The notes under the pieces: model-generated
Database searches by the model: none
What the model was told of the DNA's origin: nothing
Seen by the model: the letters and a program-made list of their open reading frames with translations, nothing else
In this document: positions 7,397 to 62,940 of the stretch, piece by piece
Layout: every line of letters starts with the position of its first letter
Position numbering within the stretch: position 1 is the first letter of the stretch
Assembly (NCBI GenBank): GCA_977017645.1
Contig: OZ360234.1
Location: 17,546,001 to 17,610,000 of the forward strand
Direction of reading: 5' to 3'
Length of the DNA stretch: 64,000 nt
Source: Torpedo marmorata
Lineage: Eukaryota
Made by a program: the position numbers and the translations under genes

Positions 7397-8226
7397 AAAA
7401 TGGCGGTGCTGCCAGAGCCACTGTACCGGCAGCGCTGCCACGGACCCGCGGGGAGCAAGGAGCGGAGATACAGCGCTCCCACGGGGTCCAACCGTCCAGT
7501 CAACTGCCGTCAGCTCCGCACAGGCTTTGAACGGCCCGTTAAAGGAGCCGACTGTAGTTTTATTTAAAATCCCGCAACCGCGGGGTCTGCGCCCAAGATG
7601 GCAACGCCTCTGATCGGCAGCAGCCACGAGGGGTTGCAGACTCCAGGGGAGCGGAGGACTGGCGCAGGGCACCAGAAAACGGGGAGACCATTCCCCGTCT
7701 GAGAAGGAGAAGCAGAGGAGACGACCCATGGGACGGTGACCACGGCAGCGGACCAGTGAGGGGGCTCTGCGGCTGAAAGACCAATGCATGCGGTGGGCTG
7801 CTGGCGACTCGAGGCGAGGAACCCGCGGAGGCTGTGGGCTGCTGGAGACTGCTGTCGGGAGACTCATGCCGAGCTGTGGACTGCTGGAGACTGGGTGAAG
7901 GGGTACCAGGTATTGGAACCAGGATGCAAGGGGGTGCCGAAGGCGCTGAAGGGTTCATGACCGTGTCGGAGGTTCGGATCTGGAGCCCGGGTTGCCAATG
8001 GTTTGAACTGGACTCTGTGGCTGCGGAGGCTGTGGAAGCGCTGGAGGCGAATCTACGGACACTGGGTGACTCTGGGGGGGGACTCTCTTTTGCTTCTCTT
8101 TCTCTGACTGTAAGAGGTGCTTCAGGCAATTTCTGCCGATGGCGAATCTGTCTGTCTTACAGCAGGCAAAAGCAATTTTGTGTAATATGACACTGTTTTA
8201 TTGCATGACAATAAATTGAATCTTGA
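7397..8226 (+). mobile_element. GC-rich non-autonomous retroelement, copy 1 (about 830 bp)
   Basis: Starts aaaatggcggtgctgcc and ends gacaataaattgaatcttgaa. It interrupts CR1 and is colinear with four other copies in the window. Confidence 0.85.
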
Positions 8227-20952: not shown

Positions 20953-21577
20953 AAAACACAATGCTGGAGAAACTCAGCAGGTCAAACCGTGTACTTTATA
21001 TAGCAAACATAAAGATACATAACCAACATTTCGAGCTTGAGCTGAAGGGCAAGGTATGAAAAAATGTCACCAGGCGTCCGAACAAAATGGTAGAGGGGAG
21101 GGGCAGGGGGAGGAGCACGGTCCACAAGGCAGGAGGTAATAGGTGGATAAGGGAGGGAGGGCACAGCAGCAAACAGGGGGAGGAGGGATGGCTCTGTGAA
21201 TAGAGAGGGACAGGGGTGGAGAGCAACGGGAAAGAAGACAAGGAGAAAGGGAAGGGAGGGAGAATGGAGAGTAGGCTGGCAGAAACCGGAGAAGTCGATG
21301 TTAATGCCATCCGGTTGGAGAGTGCTCAGACAGAAAATCAAGTGTTGTTCCTCCAATTTACGGGTGGTCTTGGTGGGATAGTACATGAGGCCATGGACAA
21401 ACGTGAGTATGGGAGTGTGACAAAGAATTGAAATGGTTGGCCACTGGGAGGTGTCTGTCATTCGTGCGGACAGAGCGAAGGTGCTCAGCGAAGCAATCCC
21501 CTAGTCTGCGTCCAGTCCCGCCAATGTAGAGAAGGCCACAATGGGAGCACCGGATGCAGTAGATCACTCCTGCGGAT
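20953..21577 (-). mobile_element. Penelope-like element (GIY-YIG end), left arm of an inverted doublet
   Basis: IYCIRCS.CGLLYIG.TGRRL.D.FAEHL, VANHFN and LEEQHLIF..TLQPDGIN. Confidence 0.9.
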
Positions 21578-22506
21578 AATCCTCCGTAATTTCCGCCACC
21601 TACAACATGATCCCACTACCAGACACATCTTCCCCCTCTCCTCCCCTCTCTGCCTTCCATAGGGACTGCTCCCTCTGTGACTCCCTCGTGCACTCATCCC
21701 TCCCTACCAATCACCCCCCCCCGCCCCTCCCGGCACCTTCCCCTGTGGCTGCAGGAAGTGCCACACTTGCATCCACACCTCCTCCCTCACCACAATTCGG
21801 GGCCCCAAACAGACCTTTCAAGTGAAGAAACACTCACTTGTGTATCCACGAGAGTGATCTACTGCATTCGGTGCTCCCGTTGTGGCCTTCTCTACATCGG
21901 AGAGACTGGGCGCAGATTGGGAGATCGCTTCACTGAGCATCTTCACTCTGTCCGCATCAGTGACAGACAATAGACAGGGATCTCTCAGTGGCCAACCATT
22001 TCAGTTCTGCGTCCCACTCCCATACTCACATGTCTGTCCATGGCTTCATGTACTATCCCACCAAGACCACCCGTAAATTGGAGGAACAACACTTGATTTT
22101 CCGTCTGGGCACTCTCCAGCCAGATGGCATTAACATCAACTTCTCCGGTTTCTGCTAACCTACTCTCCTTTCTCCCTCCCTTCCCTTTCCCCTTGTCTTC
22201 TTTCCCTTTGCTCTCCACCCCCTTCCCTCTCCATTCACAGAGCCATCCCTCCTCCCCCTGCTTGCTGTTGTGCCCTCCCACCTTTATCCACCTATTACCT
22301 CCTGCCTTTGGGACCATACTCCTCCCCCCAACCATTTTGTTTGGACGCCTGCCGACATTTTTCCATACCTTGATGAAGGGGCCAAGCCAGAAACGTCGGT
22401 TACGTACCTTTATCTTTGCTATATAAAGTACACTGTTTGACCAGCTGAGTTTCTCCAGCCTTGTGTTTTTATTTCAACCACAGTGTCTGCAGACTTTCGT
22501 GTTTTA
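21575..22506 (+). mobile_element. Penelope-like element (Neptune-type), right arm of an inverted doublet
   Basis: VIYCIRCSRCGLLYIGETGRRLGDRF.EHL, an upstream Cys-rich linker, a pyrimidine-rich UTR and a hammerhead-like tail. Confidence 0.9.
22364..22404 (+). ncRNA. minimal type I hammerhead-ribozyme-like motif (variant core)
   Basis: catacc-ttgatga-aggggccaagcca-gaaacgtc-ggttacg. Confidence 0.55.
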
Positions 22507-26170: not shown

Positions 26171-26275
26171 GAAAAAATACCTCATTCACACAACCACTTT
26201 TTAATGTTTGAAGTAAGACCATGTTGGAAGGTGAGTGCTCCTGCAGGGGATTCAGATGACTAAATGGGACTGGGT

Positions 26276-29200
26276 TGTGGTAAACCACTATTGTACCACT
26301 GTATATATTATGGGCTGGGGCAAGCCTGATCATGTCCTGTCTGTCTGTCCCGGTGACTCCTCCCCCTCTCCCCTGGAATAAAGGCCTTGAGCCACTGACT
26401 CCACCCTCAGTTCCGGGACAGTCTAGTAGGGATCAACAGGTCTAAGTGTAGCTTAGCCCTGGCCTGAATTCTGGTAATAAAAGCCTATTGATCTCCTGTA
26501 CTTCTTGCCTTGAGTAAGTCATTGATAGGTATATCAATTTTATTACCAGTCTTAATCTGATGGAGAATTTTCTGAGGCCAGACAAGCTAGACATTGCCCC
26601 CCTGGCCCAAGACCCCGCAAGTACCTTCGAACTCTGGCTACGCTGCTTCATACCCTTCCTGAGGTCGACCAGAGCGGTCAGCGACGAGGACAAACTCGAC
26701 ATCCTCATGTCTAGGGTAAGCCCACGGGTGTATAACACCGTCAGAGACTGCGAAACGTACGATGCTGCCTTGGGAGCCCTTAAAAGGCTGTACCTGACGC
26801 CTGTGAACGCGGTCTACGCGAGGCACAGGTTATCGCAACGGCGCCAGCGACCCGGAGAGTCGATCTCCGAGTACATCCAGGACGTGCAGCTACTGGTGCG
26901 GGCGTGCGATTGCCGAGCCCTGACGGCTGAGCAACACGCTGAACTGTTGGCAAGGGACACGTTCATTATGGGGCTCAGGTCGGTTTACATTCGCCAGCGA
27001 TTGCTGGAACACGCCGACCTGACCCTGAAATCTACCGTCCAGACGGCCCTCACACTGGAGGCTGCGCTCAGGAACTCTGACGCTATGCAGGCGCAGCCTG
27101 CCTCGTGGATCGCCCCAACCGCCAGCTCTGCAAGCGACGTGACTGCCGCTGCCGTCTACCATGACCCGATCGCCGCCGCTGCCGCTATCCGTGAGTTGGC
27201 CGCCGCCGCCGCTACCCGGGAGCCCGCCGCCATCCGTGAGTTAACCGCCGCGGCCGTTACCCGGGAGCCCGAGAAGTGTTACTTCTGCGGGCTCGACAAA
27301 CACCCACGCAAACGCTGCCCGGCCCGAGACGCGACTTGTTCTAGCTGCGGCAAGAAAGGCCACTACGCTAAGGCCTGCCGCTCCAAGCCGCGTACGGGTC
27401 CGAGCAGCGCCGCGTGCGAAGTAAGGGAGCGGCCATCTTACCTGTCGTCACTTCCAGCGGTGACCTCGTGCGAGGAATGGAGGCGGCCATCTTGGCCCCC
27501 GGCACTTCCGATACCAGCACTTCCGGCGCGGCCATTTTATAGCCTCACCGCGGCACTTCCAGCACCGCCATCTTGCAGCGACACGTGCGACCTACGGGGG
27601 CTGCCATCTTCGTCAGCGTCGGATCAAGACGGCACGTCGGATCAAGACCACGTCCCGACCCTGGCATCCGTGACGCTGGATCAGAGCGCGCCCCATCAGC
27701 TGTCCAGATCGATGATGGACATATTAGTTGAGGGGCATAAGACTACCTGCCTGTTCGACACAGGCAGTACTGAAAGTTTTATCCATCCAGACACCGTCCA
27801 GCGCTGTGGCCTCACAATTGTACCGGTAAGCCAGAGGGTGGCCATGGCGTCTGGAACACACACAACAGACATCCGGGGGGGTTGTGTGGCGAACATAGTG
27901 GTACAGGGCACGGAATATCGGGGGTTTTCATTGTTGGTCATGCCCCGTTTGTGTGCTCCTGTATTGCTGGGACTGGACTTCCAAAGCCACCTGCTAAGCG
28001 TCACCATGCACTATGATGGGCCCCACCCTCCGATCGTAGTGACTAACCCCGAGTATTTGAGTAATACGCCCCAGACTACCTGTGGTCTCTCCACGCTGAA
28101 GATCCAACCCCCGTCACCTTTCGCCAACCTGACCCCTGACTGTAAGCCTGTAGCAACTAAAAGTAGGTGATACAGTGCAGGGGACAGGGCATTCATTAAG
28201 GCGGAGGTGCATCGTCTACTGGGGGAAGGGATCATCGCACCCAGTAACAGCCCCTGGAGAGCTCAGGTAGTCGTAGTGAAGAACGGGGCCAAGAGCCGGA
28301 TGGTGGTGGACTACAGTCAGACCATTAACCGGTTCACGCAACTGGATGCCTATCCGCTGCCGAGAATCGCGGATATGGTCAACCAGATTGCGCAGTACAA
28401 AATCTTTTCCAACATTGACCTAAAGTCGGCATACCACCAACTTCCGATTCGCCGGGAAGACCGAGCGTACACCGCTTTCGAGGCGGACGGCAGGTTATTC
28501 CATTTCCTGCGCGTCCCCTTCGGGGTAACAAACGGGGTATCTGTGTTTCAACGGGAGATGGACAGGATCGTTGACCAGTTCAAACTCACTGCCACCTTCC
28601 CGTACCTGGACGACATCACCATTTGTGGTCATGATCGCCAGGATCACGATAGGAACCTTCGGAAGTTCCTGCAGGCGGCCAAGACGCTGAACCTCACATA
28701 TAACAAGGAGAAATGCGTGTTCGGGACTACCCGACTCGCTATCCTGGGGTGTGTCGTGGAGAACGGGGTGATTGGACCCGACCCCGACCGCATGCGCCCC
28801 CTGTTGGAACTTTCGATTCCCCATACCCCCAAAGCCCTTAAACGATGCCTCGGGTTCTTCTCGTATTATGCGCAGTGGGTCCCAAACTACGCGGACAAAG
28901 CCCGACCCCTCGTCAAGTCCACCAAGTTTCCCCTGGCAGCGGAGGCACGTGAGGCTTTCGACCTCATAAAAGGGGACATCGCCCGAGCAGCGATGCACGC
29001 GGTGGACGAGTCGGTACCTTTTCAGGTAGAGAGTGACGCATCGGACTTCGCACTGGCTGCTACCCTCAACCAGGCGGGAAGACCGGTAGCGTTTTTCTCC
29101 CGCACCCTTCAAGGCCCCGAAATTCGGCACTCCGCGGTAGAGAAAGAGGCCCAAGCCATAGTTGAGGCTATTCGGCACTGGAGGCACTATCTCGCCGGAA

Positions 29201-30892
29201 AACGTTTTACCCTGCTGACGGACCAGCGCTCCGTCGCATTCATGTTTAACAACCAGCAGCGGGGTAAAATCAAAAATGATAAAATCATGAGGTGGAGAAT
29301 AGAACTCTCCACCTACAATTACGACATCCTTTACCGGCCCGGGAAGCTCAACGAGCCCTCCGATGCTCTATCCTGGGGATCGTGCGCCAGCACGCAGATC
29401 GACCGGTTATACTCCCTCCATTGCGACCTCTGCCACCCAGGAGTTATAAGGCTGTTCCACTTCATAAAAGCACGGAACCTGCCTTACTCCCTGGAAGAGG
29501 TCAGGACCATGACCAGCAGCTGCCGAGTCTGTGCGGAGTGCAAACCGCAATTCTACCGCCCCGACAAGGCACAGCTGGTCAAGGCCACCCGCCCTTTTGA
29601 ACGTCTCAGTATCGACTTCAAGGGCCCCCTTCCCTCCACGAACCGCAACGTGTACTTTCTTAATATTATCGACGAGTACTCGCGGTTCCCCTTTGCCATC
29701 CCCTGCCCCGATACCTCGGCAGCTTCGGCTATTAAAGCCCTCCGCCAGGTATTCACCTTGTTCGGGTTCCCCTGCTATGTCCATAGCGACTGGGGATCCG
29801 CGTTCATGAGTGAGGAACTGCGGCAGTACTTGCAGACCCGAGGCATCGCCACCAGTAGGACCACGGGGTACAACCCACGGGGAAACGGACAGGTGGAGAG
29901 GGAGAACGCCACTGTATGGACAGCTACGCTACTGGCCCTGAAATCAAAAGGGTGGCCAGTGGCCCGCTGGCAAGAGGTTCTCCCGGACGCCCTCCACTCT
30001 ATACGATCCCTGTTATGTACCTCCACAAACACTACCCCTCACGAACGTCTTTTTCCTTCCCTAGAAAATCGACCACCGGAACTACCCTCCCTACCTGACT
30101 GACGTCCCCGGGACCGGTGCTACTCTGCAAACACCTTCGGAGTAGCAAGTACGAGCCCTTGGTCGAGAGGGTGCAGCTGACCCATGCGAACCCGCAGTAC
30201 GCATTCGTGGTCTTCCCCGACGGGCGGGAAGACACGGTGTCAATACGGGACCTGGCGCCTGCAGGAGCGTTGGAAGAGGTCCCCGACAGCGGGAACGCCT
30301 GGTCACAGCTGCCCCCTCCGCCTCCCAGCACGGCGGGTACAACGCCCCAGCCGGAGCTGGACGAGCCACAAGCCAGGCAGGAGGCAACCCGGACCCAGAC
30401 CCCCCCCACCCTCGTTCCACAACCACAATCATCGCCCGCGCCATCACCGCAGGTCTTACGTAGGTCGCAGCGGCGAGCCCGACCGCCGGATAGACTCAAC
30501 CTGTAGAGGTGATGGTTGCGGCAACCCTACTATGTAAATAATTTGTTTATATTTGTGTGCGCGGGATATTAATTACGGTAATTACGGTGACCACTTCGCC
30601 CCCCCATCGGATTTGTTTTAAAAGGGGTGAATGTGGTAAACCACTATTGTACCACTGTATATATTATGGGCTGGGGCAAGCCTGATCATGTCCTGTCTGT
30701 CTGTCCCGGTGACTCCTCCCCCTCTCCCCTGGAATAAAGGCCTTGAGCCACTGACTCCACCCTCAGTTCCGGGACAGTCTAGTAGGGATCAACAGGTCTA
30801 AGTGTAGCTTAGCCCTGGCCTGAATTCTGGTAATAAAAGCCTATTGATCTCCTGTACTTCTTGCCTTGAGTAAGTCATTGATAGGTATATCA
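26276..30892 (+). mobile_element. full-length Gypsy LTR retrotransposon A (4617 bp)
   Basis: 261-bp LTRs at 26276-26536 and 30632-30892 (TG..CA, identical by eye), 5-bp TSD tgggt, polypurine tract aaaaggggtgaa, PR-RT-RH-IN domain order. Confidence 0.97.
26560..30506 (+). pseudogene. gag-pol polyprotein of element A (disrupted)
   Basis: Two CCHC knuckles (CYFCGLDKHPRKRC, CSSCGKKGHYAKAC), protease LFDTGS, RT YLDD, RNase H ESDAS, integrase H..CH..C..C and SIDFKG..E. In-frame TGA at 28168-28170 and a frameshift near 30060. Confidence 0.93.
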
Positions 30893-30970
30893 TGGGTAGG
30901 GCTGACAAAAATGAAGGCTAGATGACACACAATTATATACATTGGGAAGCCTGTTTGAAGGGTGGTGTCA

Positions 30971-33900
30971 TGTGGTAAACCACTGTTTAGGTGTATTGTG
31001 TGCTAGGGTGTAGTATGGGTATGTCCTGCTGTCTGTCCCGGTGTCTCCTCCCCCTCCCCTGGTTGTCCCGGTAATCCCTCCTCTTTCCTCACCTGAATAA
31101 AGGCCCTTGTGCCACCGCTCCGCCCCCAGTCCGGGATCAGATCTGCAGACCAACTGTAGCTGTGTTTATAGTTAATAAAAGCCTATGGTTCGTTTCCACT
31201 CATAGTCTCTTGAGTGATTATTGATAGGCCTATCAATTTTATTAACTATTAAAATCCGATGGAGAGCGCTCTAAGACCGGACCGATTGGACAACGACCCT
31301 CTAGCTCCTGATGCCGGTAATTCTTTTGAACACTGGCTACGCTGTTTCGAGTCCTTTCTGACGACGATCAAAGCAGAAAGCGAGGACCAGAAATTGGAGG
31401 TCCTCGTGTCCAGGGTAAGCCCTCGGGTATTCTCGACGATTCGCGACTGTAAAACCTACACGGAGGCGATGGACGCGCTGAAGAGAATCTATGTTACGCC
31501 TGTTAACGCGGTCTACGCAAGGTACCGACTATCAACGCGAAAACAGCGGGCCAGGGAGTCGATCGTTGAGTTTGTCAGGGACATACAGTCGCTGGTGCGA
31601 GCGTGCGACTGTAAGGTGCTGACTGCAGAGGAACACGCTGAATTGCTGGAGAGGGACACGTTCATCATGGGGATCAGGTCGGTATACGTGCGCCAGCGGC
31701 TGCTGGAGCACGCCGACCTGGACCTCCGTACCGCGGTTGCAATGGCCCACACGCTGGAGGCCACGCTGCGGAACTCGGACGCCATGCAGGCGCGCGACCT
31801 CCAGCCTGCCGCGTGGTCAGCCCCGTCCCCCAACCCTGCCAGCCATCTGACCGCCGCCTCCGTTTGCCGCGACCTGTTCGCAGCCGCCGCTATCCACGAA
31901 CTCACTGCCGCAGCCGTTAACCGCGAGCCCGAGAAGTGCTACTTCTGCGGGCTCGATAAGCACCAAAGAAAACGCTGCCCGGCCCGCGACGCGACTTGCT
32001 CTAGCTGCGGCAAGAAAGGCCATTATGCAAAGGCCTGCCGCTCTAAGCCGCGCGCGGGTCCGAGCAGCGCCGCGTGCGAGATACGGGAGCGGCCATCTTA
32101 CCTGCTGTCGTTTCCGGCGTCGACCTCGTGTGAGGAGTGGAGGCGGCCATCTTTGATGCTGGCACTTCCGGCGCCGCCATCTTATAGCACGACATCTGTA
32201 CTTCCGGCACTTCCGGCGCCGCCATCTTGCAGCGCGAGCAGCAGCGACACGTGCAACCCACGGGAGCGGCCATCTTTGTCAGCTTCGGATCAAGACGACT
32301 ACATCCCGACCCTAGCATCCGTCACCCTCGACCAGAGTGTTCCCCACCAGCTGTCGCGATCCATGATGGACATCCTGGTGGAGGGGCACAAGACCACTTG
32401 CCTATTTGATACTGGCAGCACGGAGAGTTTCATTCACCTGGACACTGTTCAGCGCTGTGGCCTGACTACCATACCGGTAAGCCAGAGGGTGGCCATGGCG
32501 TCTGGGTCACACACAACAGACATCCGGGGTGCTTGTGTGGCGAACATTGTAGTACAGGGGACAGAGTATCGGCAATTCTCGTTATTTATTATGAATCGTT
32601 TGTGTGCGCCGGTATTACTGGGTCTTGACTTTCAGAGCCACTTACGGAGTGTCACAATGTGATATGACGGTCCCCACCCTGCGATCACTGTAGCGAACCA
32701 CCAGTTCCTGGACAACACGCCTCAGACTACCTGTGGTCTCGCTGCACCTCCGCCTTGATAAACGCTCTGTCCCCCGCACTGTATCGCCCCCGTCGTTATT
32801 CGCCAACCTGACCCCTGACTGTAAGCCGGTGGCAACCAAGAGCAGGCGATACAGTGCGGGGGACAGAGCATTTATCAAGGCGGAGGTGCAGCGATTATTA
32901 CAGGAGGGGATTATTGAGAAAAGTAATAGCCCCTGGAGAGCCCAGGTAGTCGTAGTAAAAGGGGCCAAGAGTAGGATGGTGGTGGACTACAGCCAAACCA
33001 TTAACCGATTCACGCAGCTGGACGCATATCCGCTACCACGAATAGCGGATAAAGTGAATGAAATAGCCCAGTATAGGCTATTTTCAACGATAGACCTAAA
33101 ATCTGCATACCATCAGCTCCCTATCCGTCGGGAGGACCGTTCGTACACCGCGTTCGAGGCGGATGGCAGGCTGTTCCATTTCCTGCGCGTCCCTTTCGGG
33201 GTCACAAATGGTGTGTCAGTATTCCAGCGGGAGATGGACAGGATTGTTGATCACTATAAACTTAAAGCCACTTTCCCATACCTGGACGACATTACCATCT
33301 GTGGTCATGATGGTCAGGACCATGACAACAACCTTCGGAGGTTCCTGCAGGCGGCCAAAGCATTAAACCTCACGTATAATAAAGACAAATGCGTGTTTGG
33401 TACCACCCGCCTCGCCATTTTGGGGTGTGTGGTCGAGAACGGGGTTATTGGACCCGACCCCGACCGCATGCGGCCCCTGCTGGAACTCCCGCTTCCCCAC
33501 ACCCCCAAAGCCCTTAAACGATGCCTCGGGTTCTTCTCATACTATGCGCAGTGGGTTCCCAATTATGCTGATAAGGCCCGACCCCTTGTAAAATCCACCG
33601 CATTTCCCCTTGCTTCGGAGGCACGTAAGGCGTTTGACCTTATAAAAGGGGACATTGCACGAGCAACAATGCACGCGGTGGATGAAGAGACACCTTTTCA
33701 GGTAGAGAGCGACGCATCGGACTTCGCGCTGGCTGCTACCCTCAACCAGGCGGGAAGGCCGGTGGCGTTTTTCTCACGGACCCTCCAAGGCCCCGAAATT
33801 CGGCACTCCGCGGTGGAGAAGGAAGCCCAGGCCATAGTGGAAGCCATCAGGCACTGGAGGCACTATCTCGCCGGTAAGCATTTTACCCTGCTGACAGATC

Positions 33901-35533
33901 AACGCTCTGTGGCTTTTATGTTCAACAATCAGCAGCGGGGTAAGATCAAAAATGACAAGATCATGAGGTGGAGAATAGAACTCTCCACCTACAATTACGA
34001 CATCCTTTACCGGCCCGGGAAGCTCAATGAGCCCTCCGATGCTCTATCCCGGGGATCATGCGCCAGCGCGCAGATCGACGGGTTACACGCCCTACATGAC
34101 GACCTATGCCACCCAGGAGTTACCAGGCTCTTTCACTTTGTGAAGTCACGGAACCTGCCATACTCCCTGGAAGAGGTCAGGACAATGATCAGCAGTTGTC
34201 GGGTTTGCGCGGAGTGCAAACCTCAGTTCTATCGCCCCGACAAGGCACAGCTGGTCAAAGCCACCCGCCCTTTTGAACGTCTCAGCATTGACTTCAAGGG
34301 CCCCCTTCCCTCCACGAACCGCAATGTGTATTTTCTGAATATTATTGATGAGTACTCGCGGTTCCCCTTCGCCATCCCCTGCCCCGACACTTCGGCTACC
34401 TCAACCATTAAAGCTCTTCACCAGGTATTTACGCTATTTGGCTTCCCGAACTATATACATAGTGACCGGGGATCAGCTTTTATGAGTGAGGAGCTGCGAC
34501 AGTATCTGCTGACCCGAGGCATCGCCACTAGTAGGACCACAGGTACAACCCCCGGGGAAATGGACAGGTGGAAAGGGAGAACGCCACGGTCTGGAAGGCC
34601 GCGCTCCTGGCTCTCAAGTCCAGGGGACTGCCGGTCTCCCGCTGGCAAGAGGTCCTCCCTGAAGCCCTCCACTCTATCCAGTCCCTGCTGTGCACGTCCA
34701 CAAATGCAACCCCTCACGAACGACTTTTCTCCTTCCCCAGGAAGTCGAACACCGGAACCATCCTACCTGCCTGGCTGATGTCCCCGGGACCCGTGCTGCT
34801 CCGCAACCACCTTCGGAGCAGCAAATATGAGCCGACGGTCCAGAGGGTGCAGTTAGCGCACGCTAACCCACAGTATGCCTACGTGGTCTTCCCTGATGGG
34901 CGAGAGGACACGGTGTCAATTCGTGACCTGGCGCCCGCTGGAGCGCCGGGAGAAACCCTCGACGGGCAAGACCACTTGCTGCAGCCCCTCCCCATTCCCC
35001 CTCCCAGCACGTCAGCCCCAGCACCCTCGCCGGGACCGGATACGCCACAAGAAGCCAGGCAGGAGGCGACCTTGCAGACAATCCTGCCATCTCCCCCATC
35101 ACCACAACCCGCCCCGTCACCACGGGTACTGCGCAGGTCGCAGCGGCGAATCAGACCACCGGATCGCCTTGACCTGTAAAATTGAATGTAAATATATCTG
35201 TTTTGTGTCTGTAAAATAGTCACTGTGGTCACTTCACCCCGCTGGACTCTTTTAAAAGGAGGGGTGAATGTGGTAAACCACTGTTTAGGTGTATTGTGTG
35301 CTAGGGTGTAGTATGGGCATGTCCTGCTGTCTGTCCCGGTGTCTCCTCCCCCTCCCCTGGTTGTCCCGGTAATCCCTCCCCTTTCCTCACCTGAATAAAG
35401 GCCCTTGTGCCACCGCTCCGCCCCCAGTCCGGGATCAGATCTGCAGGCCAACTGTAGCTGTGCTTATAGTTAATAAAAGCCTATGGTTCGTTTCCACTCA
35501 TAGTCTCTTGAGTGATTATTGATAGGCCTATCA
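30971..35533 (+). mobile_element. full-length Gypsy LTR retrotransposon B (4563 bp), sister family of A
   Basis: 265-bp LTRs at 30971-31235 and 35269-35533 (four transitions seen), 5-bp TSD tgtca, polypurine tract aaaaggaggggtgaa. Confidence 0.97.
31259..35179 (+). pseudogene. gag-pol polyprotein of element B (disrupted)
   Basis: Same domains as A. TGA at 32660-32662, frameshifts near 32740 and 34550, C-terminus RRSQRRIRPPDRLDL. Confidence 0.93.
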
Positions 35534-35819
35534 TGTCATTGTTAAGCAGCATGGAGGCGTTCAGCTGCAAATCGGAGCTCCGAGTTTGATGTAAACTCAC
35601 AGCCCATCCATTCCAGCCTGGAACTGTTGGCTAACTCCGTTTGTACACATCAGGGTCGAACAAAGATGCAACTTCCATCAAAGCCTTAGCAACAGCCACC
35701 CAATGCCTGAGTGGTGCAGCAGAAGTTCAGACTACTGGCATCATTTCTATAGACTACAGAGATTTGTGGCATTTTATAGCAGTAGTACAATCTGTACTCT
35801 AACACACGTTACTCCTGAC

Positions 35820-39511: not shown

Positions 39512-40414
39512 AGAAGTAAAACACGAAAATCTGTAGACACCGTGGTTGAAGTAAAAAACACAAATGCTGGAGAAACTCAGCAGGTCAAACAGTGTCTTTT
39601 ATGTAGCAAAGGTAGAAATACATAACCGACGTTTCAGGCTTGAGCCCTTCATCAAAGTATGAGAAAATGCCGGCAGGCGTCCGAACAAAAGAGTGAGGGG
39701 GGAAGGGGGGTGGCAAAGGCAGGAGATGATAGGTGGAGAAAGGAGGGAGGGGACAGCAGCAAAGAGGGGGAGGAGGGATGGCTGGGTAGGTGGAGAAAAA
39801 CAGGAAGGACAGGTGAGGGGGGAGGGGAAGGGAACGACAAGCAGGTTTAGTGGAAAGCAGAAAAGTCAATGTTAATGCCATCTGGCTGGAGAGTGCCCAG
39901 ACGGAAAATGAGATGTTGTTCCTCCAATTTGCAGGTAGTCTGGGTAGGATAGTACATAAGGCCATGGACAGACATGTGAGTGTGGGAGTATGACCCGGAA
40001 TTGAAATGGTTGGCTACTGGGAGGTCGCTGTTGTTGCGGACGGAGAGGAGGTGGTCAGCAAAGCAGTCTCCCAATCTACGACCGGTCTCTCCAATGTAGA
40101 GAAAGCCACAAAGGGAGCACTGGATGCAGTAAATAAGTTCTCTGGATGTACGTGAAGTGTAGTTTCACTTTGAAGGCTTGTTTGGGGTCCTGGACCGTGG
40201 TGAGGGGGGAGGTGTGGGCGCAGGTGTTGCACCTCCTGCGGGCACAGGGGAAGGTGCCAGGGGTGCGATGGGTGGGGAGGGATGAGTGCATGAGTGAATC
40301 GCGGATGGAGCGGTCCCTACGGAAGGCCGAGAGGGGAGGAGAAGGAAAAATGTGTCTGGTGGTGGGATCCTGTAGTAAGTGCCGGAAATTCCGGCGGATA
40401 ATGTGTTGGATAAT
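39512..40414 (-). mobile_element. Penelope-like element, 5'-truncated
   Basis: GIY-YIG remnants, CARRRCNTC linker, 12-bp TSD atcctagtaaat (39500-39511 and 40415-40426). Confidence 0.9.
39621..39661 (-). ncRNA. minimal hammerhead-ribozyme-like motif (best-preserved copy)
   Basis: Minus strand catact-ttgatga-a-gggc tcaa gcct-gaaacgtc-ggttatg. Confidence 0.6.
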
Positions 40415-42120: not shown

Positions 42121-43225
42121 TCAGAATCAGAATTTATTGTCATGAACAAGTCACGAAATTCGGTGTTTTGCAGCAGCATCATAGTGCAAACATTCATATT
42201 ATGAACCATCTTACAACAATAATATAAAAAATAAAAATAGTAGTGCACGAAAAGTAAGGCAGTGTCTTTGGTTCATTGATTACCGTATTCAGGAATCTGA
42301 TGGCAGAGGGGAAAAAGCTGTCCTTGTGCCGCTGAGTGCTCGTCTTTAGGCTCCTGTACCTTTTTCCCGATGGTATAGTGAAGAGGGCATGGCCTGGGTG
42401 GTGGGGGTCTTTGAGGATAGAGGCTGCTTTTTTAAGACACCGCCTCATGTTGATGTCCTCGATGGAGTGGAGTCTGGTGCCTATGATGTTGCAGGCCGAG
42501 TTCACAATCCTCTGGAGTTTTTTCTTGACCTGAGATTTGGCGCCTCCATACCAGACAGTGATGCAACCAGCCAGTATTCTCTCCACGGTACACTTGTAGA
42601 AGTTTTCGAGAGTCTTCGGTGACATGCCGGATCTCCTCAAGCACCTCACAAAGTATAGCCGCTGGCTGGAATTCTTCGTGATTGCATCAACATGGAGGCT
42701 CCAGGACAAATCCTCGGAGATGTTGACACCCAGGAATTTGAAGTTCTTGACCCTCCACTACTGAGCCCTCGATGAGGACTGGGTCGTGTTCCCCTGACTC
42801 CCTCCTGAAGTCCACAATCATCTCCTTGGTTTTGCTAACGTTGAGCGCAAGGTTGTTGTTGTGACACCACTCAACGAGCTGATCTATCTCCTTCTTGTAC
42901 ACTTCCTCATTTCCGTTTGTGATTCTGCCGACAACTGTGGTGTCATCGGCAAACTTGTAGATAGCATTGGAATTGTTCCTGGCCACAGTCATGGGTGCAT
43001 AATGAGTAGAGCAGTGGGCTTAAGCACGCATCCTTGGGGTGCGCCTGTGTTGATAATCAGTTGCTTCAAATTCGTACTGACTGTGGTCTTCCGATGAGAA
43101 AGTCAAGGATCCAATTGCAGAGTGGGGTACAGAGGCCCAGAGTTTGTAGCTTCTTGACCAGCACTGAGGGAATAATGGTATTGAAGGCTGAGCTGTAGTC
43201 GATGAAGAGCAGCCGTACGTATGGT
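42121..43225 (-). mobile_element. Rex-Babar LINE 3' portion
   Basis: [40 protein letters not shown] and (ttctga)n tail. Confidence 0.9.
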
Positions 43226-43619: not shown

Positions 43620-45800
43620 TCAGCCCTTGGTGTCTCTGCTCCCAGTTTCTGAGGTTGACATGAACTGAACCTTCAGGAGGGTGAATCTTGGAAAATCCTG
43701 CGGCCCAGGTGTACCTGGCCGTGTCATTAAAACCCATGTGAACCAACTGGCTGAAGGTTTTGCAGACAATTTCAATGTCTTGCTCCAACAGTCAGAGGTC
43801 CCTGCCTGCTTCAAAACTTCTGGAGTTCAAGAAGAGCAAGGTGATCTGCCTCAACAACTATTGGTGGCACTTCTATCTTCTGTGCTGAAGTGCTTTGGCT
43901 ATGGAGCAGATGAACTTCTATCTCAGGAAGGATCTAGAGTTCAAAAGTAAATCATGAAAATCTGTGGACACCGTGGTTGAAGTAAAAAACACAAAATGCT
44001 GGAGAAGCTCAGCAGGTCAAACAGTGTCCTTAATGGAGCAGAGCAAAGGTAGAAATACATAACCAACATTTCGGGCCTGAGCCCTTCAACAAGGTATGAG
44101 AGAATGCCGGCAGGCATCCGAACAAAAGGGGAGGGGGGGTGCAAAGGCAGGAGAAGATAGGTGGATGAGGGGACAGCAGCAATGAGGGGGAGGAGGGATG
44201 GCTGGGTGGGTAAGGAGGAAGGGAGGGGAAAAACTGGAAAGACAGGAAAGGGGGAGTGGAAAGAAAAGGCGAGCAAGTTTAGTAGAAGGCAGAGAAATCA
44301 ATGTAAATGCCATTTGGCTGGAGAGTGCCCAGACGGAAGATAAGGTGTTGTTCCTCCAATCTGCGGGTGGTCAGGGTAGAATAGTGCAAAAGGCCATGGA
44401 CAGACATGTGAGTCTGGGAGTGTGACCCAGAATTGAAATGGTTGGCTACTGGGAGGTCGCTGTGGTTGCGGACGGAGAGGAGGTGCTCGGCAAAGCGATC
44501 TCCCAATCTGCGACCGGTCTCTCCGATGTAGAGAACGCCACAAAGGGAGCACCGGATGCAGTAAATGAGTCCTGCGGATATACAAGTGAAGTTTTGCTTC
44601 ACTTGAAAGGCCTGTTTGGGGCCCCGGACCATGGTGAGGGAGGAGGTGTGGGCGCAAGTGTTGCACCTCCTGCGGCCACAGGGGAAGGTGCCGGGGGGGG
44701 ATAGGTGGGGATGGATGAGTGAACAAGGGAATCACGGAGGGAGCGGTACCTGCGGAAGGCCGAGGGGAGGAGAAGGAAAAATGTGTCTGGTGGTGGGATC
44801 CTGTAGTAAGTGCCGGAAATTCCGGTGGATAATGTGTTGAATGCGGAGGCTGGTGGGGTGGTAGGTGAGGATACCTATCGTCACAACAGATGACAGATGC
44901 CATCTCGCTGGTCTTGCACTCTAGGCATTAGATCACCTTGGACCACAAGAAAACCTACGTCAGGCTTTTGTTTATTGACTGCAACCCGGCATTCAACAGC
45001 TGTGTAACAAGTTCAGCTCTAACACAATCTATAAAGTTGTTGATGACACCACTGTTTTTGATTGAGTAATTGGAAATGAGTCAGAATACAGGCTGGAGAT
45101 GAGAATCTGGTTGGGTAGTGCCAGAACAAATCTTGCTCTCAATGTCACTGACCAAGGATCTTATTGTCGATTTTAGGAAGGAGGGGCAGAGGGACCACCT
45201 GTCTGGATTGATGGGACAGGGGTGGAGAGGGTTAGTACTTCAAGTTCCTGGGAGTATATATTTCAGAAGATCTTTCCAGGAGCCAGCACAGAAACTGTGG
45301 AAAAAGTCACACCAACGTCTATAATTTCTAAGAAGTCTGAGGAGATTTGGCATGTCATTGAATACTCTTATCAAACATCCACAGGTGTACTGTGGAAAGT
45401 ATATGATTGGTTGCTTGACAGTAATTTGAGTGCCCAGGAACACAGAAGGATGCAGAAGGTAGCAAACATAGGCTGGCCCATCACGGACTCTGATGTGAGG
45501 TGCTGTCTCAAGAAAGCAGCCAGTCATAAAGGACCCCATCACCCTGGTCACAACCTTTTCTCACAGCTACCTTCAGATAAGCCTGAAGACCAATACCTCC
45601 AGGTTCAAGAAGTTTTTTTCCAACTGCTATCGCGATATTGTAACGCTATTATAACGCTTATCATGGACTGCTCTGACATCACAGGGCTGTCTACACTATT
45701 GAAAGGTACTTTTTTCTTGCACTATGGTAACTGAACATTTATTATCTATATTTTGTATTTTTTCACTGTTCTTGTTTGGCTGAAGCTAGCAGGAATTTGG
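43620..45800 (+). mobile_element. decayed Rex-Babar LINE split by a Penelope insertion
   Basis: GP.VPGRV.K..NQLA..F.D.FN at 43681-43940; continues after 44875 with [21 protein letters not shown] and HPGHNLFS.LPS. Confidence 0.7.
43945..44872 (-). mobile_element. Penelope-like element, 5'-truncated
   Basis: Open GIY-YIG domain at 44279-44632 (LIYCIRCSLCGVLYIGETGRRLGDRFAEHL..LEEQHLIFRLGTLQPNGI); hammerhead-like tail at 44058-44098. Confidence 0.9.
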
Positions 45801-53129: not shown

Positions 53130-54840
53130 AGTTATTAAAAAGTTCTGATAAGAGTAAATTAATGAGGGCAGGGCAGTAGACATCATCTACATGGACTTTA
53201 GCAATGCCTTTGACAGGGTCTCGCATGATAATCTAGTCTGGATCGCTTGGGATCCAGGGCGAGTCAGTCAATTATATACAGAATTGACAGAGGATGGTGA
53301 ATGGTAGGGCCCTGGACAGTGCTGTAGAATAGGGAGGCTTGTGGGTACAGGGGCATAGTTCCATGAAATAGGTGGCCAGGGTGGTGTAAGTGCTTAGCAT
53401 GCTTGCCTTCATCAGTTAGGGCATTGGAGTACAGGAACAGGGAGGTCATGTAACAACTGTACAAGATGGTTAGTCAACACTTGGGAGTTTTGAGCACAGT
53501 TCTGGTCACCCAACTTTAGGAAAGTTACCATTAAGTTGGAAAAGGTGCAGTGAAGAGTTATGAGAACGTTACATGGACTGATAGGCTGGAATTATGTCTG
53601 GAATATTTCTCCCTGGAGTGTAGGAGGCCAAGGGGGCGGGGAAGATTTAGAATTATTTTAAAGTCATGAGGGACATAGAAAACGGTAAATAGTCGTTTTT
53701 TCCCAGTGGAAGGGAATCTATAACTAGAGGGCATTGGTTTAAGACGAGGGGAAATATTTTAAAAAGACCCAAAGGGCATCTTTTTCTACATAGAGGGTTG
53801 TGGGAATATGAAACGAGCTGCCAGAGGAAGTGGTAGAGGTGGGTACAATTGTAATATTGATAAGACAGGTACATGGCGGCGCTGCCGGAGCCGCTGTAGC
53901 GTCAGCGCTTCCGCTGGTGCGGACCCGCGGGGAGCGGAGATGCAGCGCTCCCGTGGGGTCCAGCCACCCAGTCGACTGCCGTTGGCTCCGCACGGGTTTT
54001 GAACGGCCCATTGAGGGAGTCGACGGTGGTTTTTATTTGAGATCCCGCGACCGCGGGGTCTGCACCCAAGATGGCGGCGCCTATTAATCGGCAGCAGCCA
54101 CGAGGGGCTGCAGACTCCGGGGAAGCGGAGGACTTGAGCAGGGCACCCGAGGACGAGAAGATCACGCCCCCCCCTGTCTGAGAAGGGGAAGCGGAGGAGA
54201 CAACCCACGCGATGGTGACCACGGTGGCGGACCAGTGAGGGGCTCTGAGGCTGAAGGACCAGTGCATGCGGTGGGCTGCTGGCAACTTGAGGCGAGGAAC
54301 CCGCGGAACATGTGGGCTGCTGGAGACTGCTGTCGGGAGACTCGCGCCGGGCTGCGGACTGCTGGAGACTGACTCGAACTGGCTGGAGGGGTACCACGTA
54401 TCGGAACCGGGATGCGAGGGGGTACCGAGGGCGCCGAATGGTTCCTGACCATGTCAGAGGTTCGGATCTGGAGCTCGGGTTGCCAATGGTTTGGACTGGA
54501 CTCTGTGTGGCTGCGGAGGCTGCGGAAGCACTGGAGGCGAATCTACGGACACTCGGTGACTCTGCGGGGACTCTCTTTTGCTTCTCTTTCTCTGACTAAG
54601 TCTGACTAAGAAATGTAAGAGGCGCTTAGGCAATTTCTGCCAGTGGCGAATCTGTCTGCCTTGCAGCAGGCAAAAAGAAATTTCATGTAATATGACACTG
54701 TTTTATTACTATGATAATAAATTGAATCTTGAATAGGAAAGGTTTAGAGGGATATTGGCCGAATGCAGACAAATGGGATTAGCCTGGTAGGTATGGACAG
54801 GGTTGGCCGAAGAGCCTGTTTCTGTGCTGTAGAAATCTAT
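53130..54840 (+). mobile_element. decayed CR1 3' half split by GC-rich element copy 4
   Basis: VDIIYMDFSNAFD.VSH, TRGH.FK, CR1 tail ggccgaagagcctgtttctgtgctgta. Confidence 0.8.
53873..54733 (+). mobile_element. GC-rich non-autonomous retroelement, copy 4
   Basis: Starts atggcggcgctgccggagccgc and ends aataaattgaatcttgaa; CR1 sequence resumes on both sides. Confidence 0.88.
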
Positions 54841-61962: not shown

Positions 61963-62940
61963 ATCAGAATCAGATTTTATTGTCATGAACAAGTCATGAA
62001 ATTCGGTGTTTTTGCGGCAGCATCACAGTGCAATTAACATTCATATTATAACCATCTTATGACATTACTATAAAAAATTATAAATAATAGTGCACGAAAA
62101 GTAAGGCAGTGTCTGGTTCATTGATTATTCAGGAATCTGATGGCAGCGGGGAAGAAGCTGTCCTTGTGCCGTTGAGTGCTCGTCTTTAGGCTCCTGTACC
62201 TTTTTCCCAATGGCAGCAGAGTGAAGAGGGCATGGCCTGGGTGGTAGGGGGCCTTGAGGATAGAGGCTGCTTTTTTAAGAGACCGCCTCATGTAGATGTC
62301 CTCGATGGAGTGAAGTTTGGTGCCTGTGATGTCACAGGCTGAGTTAACAACCCTCTGGAGTTTACTCTTGTCCTGAGAGTTGGCGCCTCCATACCAGGCA
62401 GTGATGCAACCAGCCAGAATGCTCTCCACGGTACACCTGTAGAAGTTTACAAGAGTCTTCGGTGACATACCGAATCTCCTCAGACACCTCACAAAGTATA
62501 GCCGCTGACGAGCCTTCTTTGTGATTGCATCAATGTGGAGGCTCCAGGATAGATCCTCGGAGATGTTGAAACCCAGGAATTTGAAGTTCTTGACCCTCTC
62601 CACTACTGAGCCCTCGATGAGGACTGGGTCATGTTCCTCTGACTTCCTCCTGAAGTCCACAATCACCTCCTTGGTTTTGCTGACGTTGAGCTCAAGGTTG
62701 TTGTCGTTACACCATTCAACGAGCTGATCTATCTTCCTCCTGTACGCTTCCTCATTGCCGTTTGTGATTCTGCCAACAACTGTGGTGTCATCGGCAAACT
62801 TGTAGATGGCATTGGAATTGTGCCTGGCCACACAGTCATGGGTGTATAACGAGTAGAGCAGTGGACTAAGCACGCATCCTTGGGGTGCGCCTGTGTTGAT
62901 AATCAGTGAGGAGGAGACGTTGTTTCCAATTCGTACTGAC
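61963..62940 (-). mobile_element. young Rex-Babar LINE 3' portion
   Basis: Uninterrupted 274-aa [36 protein letters not shown] plus tail. Confidence 0.93.

Follow-up and report, generated by a model that had tools for sequence, protein, structure and literature searches.

Two tandem Ty3/gypsy elements in Torpedo marmorata

The window, by which we mean the whole stretch of 64,000 nucleotides of Torpedo marmorata DNA that was analysed, contains two Ty3/gypsy LTR retrotransposons, E1 and E2, arranged in tandem and head to tail with a gap of 78 bp (30893-30970). The marks of this class are all present, namely TG...CA LTRs, a TSD, a polypurine tract and the order gag-PR-RT-RH-IN without env; the top solved-structure match is the Ty3 Gag-Pol, and the named proteins nearest to them come from the stingray and devil-ray genomes. 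The RTs of E1 and E2 are 93% identical, both Gag proteins contain two CCHC knuckles, and the reading frames are broken in both elements. Their features are as follows:

26276-30892, + strand: E1, whole element
26271-26275, + strand, repeated at 30893-30897: E1 TSD, 5 bp
26276-26536, + strand: E1 5' LTR, 261 bp, TG...CA, identical to the 3' LTR
26377-26382, + strand: E1 upstream AATAAA, probably a TATA-type promoter box, judged from its spacing to the Inr-like site and its U-poor downstream sequence
26406-26413, + strand: E1 Inr-like site, candidate start A26409
26447-26450, + strand: TGTA, 29 nt ahead of the helix hexamer, possibly (weak) an upstream element for CFIm
26471-26482, + strand: E1 PBS-complementary LTR segment, candidate self-primer end, with AATAAA at 26476-26481
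26483-26530, + strand: E1 predicted stem stacked on the helix, 26483-26492 with 26521-26530
26538-26549, + strand: E1 PBS, one base past the LTR, no complement to a tRNA 3' end
26560-28170, + strand: E1 gag (two CCHC knuckles) and aspartic protease, ending at an in-frame stop
28171-30506, + strand: E1 RT-RNase H-integrase, frame change near 30100, tail without a chromodomain match
30620-30631, + strand: E1 polypurine tract region
30632-30892, + strand: E1 3' LTR, AATAAA at 30832-30837
30971-35533, + strand: E2, whole element
30966-30970 and 35534-35538, + strand: E2 TSD
30971-31235, + strand: E2 5' LTR, 265 bp, four differences from the 3' LTR
31096 and 31128, + strand: E2 upstream AATAAA and Inr-like A31128, from a motif scan
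31168-31180, + strand: E2 PBS-complementary LTR segment, with AATAAA at 31174-31179
31237-31249, + strand: E2 PBS
31259-35179, + strand: E2 gag-PR-RT-RH-IN, split over three frames (ORFs 31253-32662, 32694-34778 and 34535-35179)
35269-35533, + strand: E2 3' LTR, AATAAA at 35472-35477

The LTRs of E1 are identical despite the in-frame stop (28168-28170) and the frame change near 30100; E1 may have been mobilised by proteins that another copy supplied, or errors in the sequence may account for the breaks. The close spacing of the two elements, which each have a TSD of their own, could point to a preference for local insertion. Elsewhere the window holds dispersed repeats at 20960-21578, 39563-40148 and 43995-44580, and the dispersed repeat pairs 42286-42987 / 62126-62832 and 7761-8019 / 54239-54507. 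Words resembling splice donors occur in the U5 of E1 (26510-26520, in both LTRs) and in gag (26713-26723 and 31412-31422). No tRNA gene was found within the window and no Rfam match in 26200-35700, and an Atlas search returned generic Gag-like clusters and nothing else.

A helix between the PBS and the LTR

In tRNA-primed elements the PBS is complementary to the 3' end of a tRNA and starts with TGG. In E1, by contrast, 26538-26549 is the exact reverse complement of 26471-26482 in the 5' LTR, giving a helix of 12 bp, and E2 shows a perfect pairing of 13 bp between 31168-31180 and 31237-31249. An earlier note on this DNA had claimed that the pairing LTR segment contains AATAAA in both elements, and this is the case (26476-26481 and 31174-31179); each segment ends in the hexamer plus one A, and the E1 PBS opens with the reverse complement of the hexamer and the A-run. 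When the LTRs were resampled at the same dinucleotide make-up, the observed helix length was reached in 1/20000 trials for E1 and 0/20000 for E2, and the 40 nt past either 3' LTR hold no complement of at least 7 nt in E1 or E2. The same note had reasoned that only the 5' copy of the segment can pair; this is true during transcription but not in the finished RNA, where the 3' LTR holds an identical segment that could pair with the PBS too.

Relatives were collected by a gag search of metagenomes, which gave two loci, and by a pol search of genome contigs, which gave five; the gag alignment was too variable to serve as a search query. The resulting set comprises nine elements in six families, namely E1, E2, L001/L002, L124, L125 and L126-L128, with an RT identity of 51-67% between the families compared (all but L126-L128), the pair E1/E2 excepted. 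Among the relatives only L126-L128 have two LTRs present; L001, L002, L124 and L125 show one LTR per contig, the ends of which were set by the polypurine tract, TG and CA. L124-L128 are animal-type LTR retrotransposons in bins labelled bacterial, three of them amid long tandem repeats, and are probably eukaryotic contamination of these bins. Neither gag nor a pol alignment recovered a relative from viral contigs, and 121 stretches from a motif scan of viral contigs were set aside as AT-rich chance matches.

A perfect helix of 10-18 bp, pairing the PBS with an LTR segment that ends in AWTAAA(A), is present in all nine elements (two in the window, 2/2 from the gag search and 5/5 from the pol search). 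The LTR length varies from 121 to 265 bp across the families and the distance from helix end to LTR end from 38 to 60 nt, and exactly one base separates the CA of the LTR from the helix end in each of the nine. The PBS begins with a T-run plus WTT/AAT in 9/9 elements and in none with TGG; it covaries with the element's own LTR. In an in-register count with one member per family, pairs 1-12 are kept in 6/6 families and seven of these 12 show more than one pair type. A MAFFT alignment of seven rows gave a similar picture, with 90.3% of the cells pairing and 8/14 pairs changing on both sides; the arm of L124 is misplaced in this alignment, where its row was kept, and is placed properly by the in-register count. 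The covariation score was reached by 0/500 shuffles and slid partner controls pair at 26-50%, controls that are somewhat flattering since the structure was derived from the same sequences; E1 and E2 are so close that the six families amount to about five independent lineages. In L001 and L002 the PBS end and leader recur within the LTR as an 18-nt direct repeat, which lies upstream of the helix segment (L001 615-632 and 756-773).

These observations leave us nearly certain that the helix is real and selected. The analogy with Tf1, together with the fixed register, suggests that it probably also serves for self-priming.

The helix hexamer and the start of the RNA

The hexamer in the helix is AATAAA in four families and ATTAAA in two, which are the two strong metazoan poly(A) signals, while the five preceding bases vary; in each family the change of hexamer is matched by a change in the PBS. 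Among the matches listed from contigs of close relatives, the only substitutions inside the two E1 arms are 26477 A>T, yielding ATTAAA, and T>A at its partner 26543, and these sit on different contigs. Four helix endings in two registers are seen, all with a canonical hexamer; of the 16 possible R-W-W-W-AAA endings six would have one. The hexamer position thereby shifts by one base between families, whereas the helix end stays fixed relative to the LTR CA, as a primer end would need.

The helix hexamer is the sole A[AT]TAAA of the LTR in 2/6 families (L001/L002 and L124), and a third has just one more, at 7 nt from where its LTR begins. In E1 and E2 a U/GU-rich stretch comes after the helix hexamer (T 0.40), whereas none comes after the upstream AATAAA (T 0.12-0.20), and a YA, the predicted cleavage region, lies 18 nt past the helix hexamer in both. 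In 4/6 families a TGTA lies no more than 60 nt upstream of this hexamer, against 0.24-0.43 expected per family, a result too weak to build on. The helix hexamer is very probably the working poly(A) signal, and the predictions point to the AATAAA of the E1 3' LTR (30832-30837) as likely the one in use. In L126-L128 a second AATAAA lies 15 nt after the helix hexamer, outside the cover of the PBS (L126 3668, L127 3639 and L128 3732), and in the 3' LTR of L127 the first hexamer is changed.

Each LTR of E1 and E2 also contains the other AATAAA that the earlier note had placed there (26377 and 31096), and in both elements it lies 32 nt before an Inr-like A. Among the matches listed from related contigs the interval 26377-26409, from box to Inr A and including the CA at 26408-26409, is free of substitutions and indels, the indels occurring further on. 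If a TATA-type reading of this AATAAA holds, the RNA would start 62 (E1) or 40 (E2) nt before the paired segment. A strict TATA-plus-Inr scan gave nothing in L001, L002, L126, L127 or L128, and the sites that it gave in L124 and L125 stand at unlike places, which limits the start-site guess to E1 and E2. E2 lacks the TATATA that E1 has at about 26302, and a role of this word as a shared promoter was therefore discarded.

In folding predictions the probability that the hexamer pairs with the PBS in the 5' context is 0.92-0.99 in 8/8 elements folded (the set without L002). In the context of the 3' LTR the hexamer is predicted to be paired at 0.02-0.46 in the five elements with a 3' LTR (E1 0.02, E2 about 0.25). 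Leaving out the PBS still gave the hexamer of L001 and L124 a pairing of 0.68-0.75 from one of the two trial starts. In nascent E1 RNA the hexamer is predicted to be open until about 70 nt past it have emerged and the helix to form once 70-75 nt have done so, an interval that gives the 3'-end machinery a window in which to bind first; the bare duplex, moreover, amounts to only -8 to -22 kcal/mol. Commitment of the cleavage machinery to a poly(A) site takes some seconds, and work on the timing of cis-antisense pairing was reportedly done on SV40.

A stem beside the helix end is predicted in 7/7 tested elements, and in E1 this stacked stem (26483-26492 with 26521-26530) would enclose the predicted cleavage region and the U-rich downstream element. 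Folding of the LTR part was better than that of shuffles only in E2 (6/300) and L124 (2/300) of the seven. The LTR end is a near-palindrome (26523-26536 and 31222-31235), for which a hairpin of its own, competing with the stacked stem, is possible.

A proposed 5' poly(A) switch and its alternatives

The proposal that follows joins these strands. Transcription would start in the 5' LTR, upstream of the hexamer; the PBS, emerging about 70-75 nt after the hexamer, would pair over it and shield it from the machinery of 3'-end formation, probably in concert with cap proximity. After the 3' LTR no free PBS follows, and there the same hexamer would direct cleavage roughly 18-25 nt further on. Inside the particle a cut where the A-run ends, like the one that the RNase H of Tf1 makes where its primer helix ends, would leave a 3' end to prime minus-strand DNA, and the short piece of RNA from this cut to the poly(A) site would provide the overlap for strand transfer. 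The hexamer would then sit at the last place that the PBS can still cover, which leaves the longest overlap.

That the PBS of this clade is an antisense copy of the element's own poly(A) signal, together with the 6-12 bases that precede it, appears to us the best explanation as a whole, held with evenly balanced confidence. That one helix serves both priming and poly(A) control is, on sequence and folding predictions, a well-founded hypothesis. We lean slightly towards the helix adding measurably to 5' silencing, and think it doubtful that it is the main switch. The fullest version, in which the PBS of an animal, non-chromovirus Ty3/gypsy clade would be the main 3' poly(A)-site switch, in cis-antisense only after the 5' LTR, with the same helix yielding the primer once cut where the hexamer's A-run ends and the E1/E2 primer lying 40-62 nt inside R or being the 3' R copy, is unlikely to hold in every part.

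The chief rival takes the overlap for a by-product: the helix would be selected only for self-priming, and the 5' site silenced, whether the helix is there or not, by its closeness to the cap or by missing U3 enhancers. R and U5 being tiny (the 38-60 nt from helix end to LTR end), a poly(A) signal would fall inside the helix as a result of cramping. Effects of cap distance and U3 enhancers are documented in retroviruses (PMC12789967; PMC3694450), and distance from cap to signal is a known sufficient cause of 5' silencing (PMC12789967). The candidate starts of E1 and E2 are only 46-67 nt, thus under 70 nt, from the hexamer, the hexamer would be exposed for about 70 nt of synthesis, and L126-L128 tolerate their second AATAAA without PBS cover. 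This reading gives, however, no account of why the hexamer stands at the very helix end in 6/6 families despite varying helix, LTR and distance lengths, and folding predicts occlusion whether it is needed or not; we regard it as possible but less than probable.

Another reading concerns the primer. The Inr-like sites of E1 and E2 place the candidate start 62 and 40 nt before the helix, and the paired segment may therefore not be the RNA 5' end. The R copy at the 3' end, which is identical in sequence, could then act as primer on a circularised RNA, cut or trimmed where the A-run ends, with the R upstream of the helix as strand-transfer overlap and the 5' copy on the PBS only during transcription. 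Against this, no box occurs at a comparable place in L001/L002, L124 or L126-L128; in L001 a TATA-like word seen by eye 31 nt before the helix fits a 5'-terminal primer as in Tf1; and it stands to reason that a local helix would be favoured over one spanning a range of 4 kb. We know of no precedent for priming by the 3' copy and consider it improbable.

The earlier note had named polyadenylation driven by the upstream AATAAA as the case that would overturn its proposal. With that hexamer (26377 / 31096) as the real poly(A) signal, cleavage would fall at the CA 26 nt on and the helix in U5, where it would play no part in the choice of poly(A) site. The hexamer is perfect, conserved between E1 and E2 and unchanged among the matches listed from related contigs, the CA is inside the usual 10-30 nt, and it is the first hexamer met in the 3' LTR. 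Yet in E1 and E2 it has no TGTA before it and no U/GU-rich element after it, the downstream sequence being pyrimidine- and C-rich and U-poor; it has no counterpart in the other four families; and, by reasoning, a cut at the helix end would leave no R overlap for strand transfer. With its TATA-like spacing, the upstream AATAAA is by its sequence and motifs probably a TATA-type box and not a poly(A) signal, and the overturning case looks very improbable. Least probable of all is suppression of 5' polyadenylation in the HIV-1 manner by U1 snRNP bound to a donor site downstream of the 5' LTR, for which there are the documented instances in HIV-1 and foamy virus (PMC3694450) and a donor-like gag site common to E1 (26713) and E2 (31412), but that site is part of the coding sequence and was not observed in distant families, a crude match count found no conserved U1 site within 300 nt across families, and by this count the best site in each of eight elements is equalled by 43-500/500 resampled regions.

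Significance and comparison with known systems

The overlap of primer site and poly(A) signal is real, conserved and apparently undescribed: in the accessible literature on retroelement priming and poly(A) control we found no published description of a PBS covering a poly(A) signal. All LTR elements must both ignore the poly(A) site of the 5' LTR and find a primer. The known answers to the first task, namely placement of the signal in U3, U1 bound to a donor, weak sites combined with cap proximity, and U3 enhancers, are separate from priming. In the RSV/MMTV-type arrangement the signal lies in U3 and is left untranscribed at the 5' end; for the helix hexamer, pairing with the PBS presupposes transcription at that end. 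If our proposal is true, one helix of 12-18 bp would do both jobs by means of the sole sequence that follows only the 5' LTR, and tRNA-independent priming would extend to a widespread animal lineage outside the chromoviruses. A PBS that is the reverse complement of the AWTAAA region of the LTR could serve as an annotation signature for such elements.

Repbase notes are said to mention self-priming in some fish gypsy elements. One self-primed element is Tf1, in which the RNA's 11 leading bases pair with the PBS and RNase H cuts between bases 11 and 12 (PMC7175516); in the Tf1/sushi group the complement of the PBS is supplied by RNA derived from the element's own LTR (PMC10085805; PMC4600332). 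As far as the accessible parts of these sources describe them, Tf1/Tf2 of S. pombe, Tj1 and Tf1/sushi resemble E1 and E2 in having no tRNA PBS, a self-complement of about 11-18 nt and a stem, predicted in E1 and E2, after the primer helix. They differ in other respects. Tf1/sushi elements carry a chromodomain at the integrase C-terminus, whereas the integrase tails of the window elements and of 5/5 full-length relatives match no chromodomain family at E 0.05. Tf1/sushi elements also form a three-duplex 'pretzel' around the PBS, and in E1, E2 and relatives a leader-side duplex of this kind is no better than shuffles in 7/7. Going by the chromodomain, the E1/E2 clade is not filed under Tf1/sushi. 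In E1/E2 a canonical metazoan poly(A) hexamer closes the paired segment, a feature of which the accessible texts make no mention for Tf1/sushi, and the segment may lie 40-62 nt inside the RNA, unlike the Tf1 primer at its first 11 bases.

E1 and E2 appear to resemble the Mag lineage (A/B/C clades; CFG1, Hydra2-1, DRM, SPM, Jule) in short LTRs, a length of about 4.6 kb, a 5-bp TSD, a single gag-pol with two CCHC knuckles, the lack of env and chromodomain, and occurrence in marine animals and fish. The Mag elements of Culex, 13 families, are described with tRNA-Leu, -Ser or -Arg PBSs, unlike E1 and E2 (PMC3286476). For plant Tcn1 and TAR copia elements self-priming has been predicted from PBS-LTR complementarity (PMC6317226).

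The poly(A) hairpin of HIV-1 is local to R and therefore encoded at both ends. As proposed here, HIV-1 has its poly(A) signal in R at both ends and base-pairing over the hexamer (PMC12789967). The means of retroviral control include placing the signal in U3, binding U1 to a donor that lies downstream, and keeping the sites weak (PMC3694450), to which are added cap-to-signal distance in several retroviruses, U3 enhancers and the HIV-1 stem-loop (PMC12789967); in HIV-1 itself, 5' suppression is ascribed to U1 at the downstream major splice donor plus U3 enhancers (PMC3694450). The hairpin occlusion that the earlier note took as precedent is thus a loose one: pairing over the hexamer has been proposed to lower its use, but in the accessible texts the hairpin 'could facilitate' suppression and is not given as the main means, which are the donor with U1, cap distance and U3 (PMC3694450; PMC12789967). 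Unlike in the HIV-1 hairpin, the covering strand in E1 and E2 is the PBS itself, and since the PBS is outside the LTR, the structure would be 5'-specific by design.
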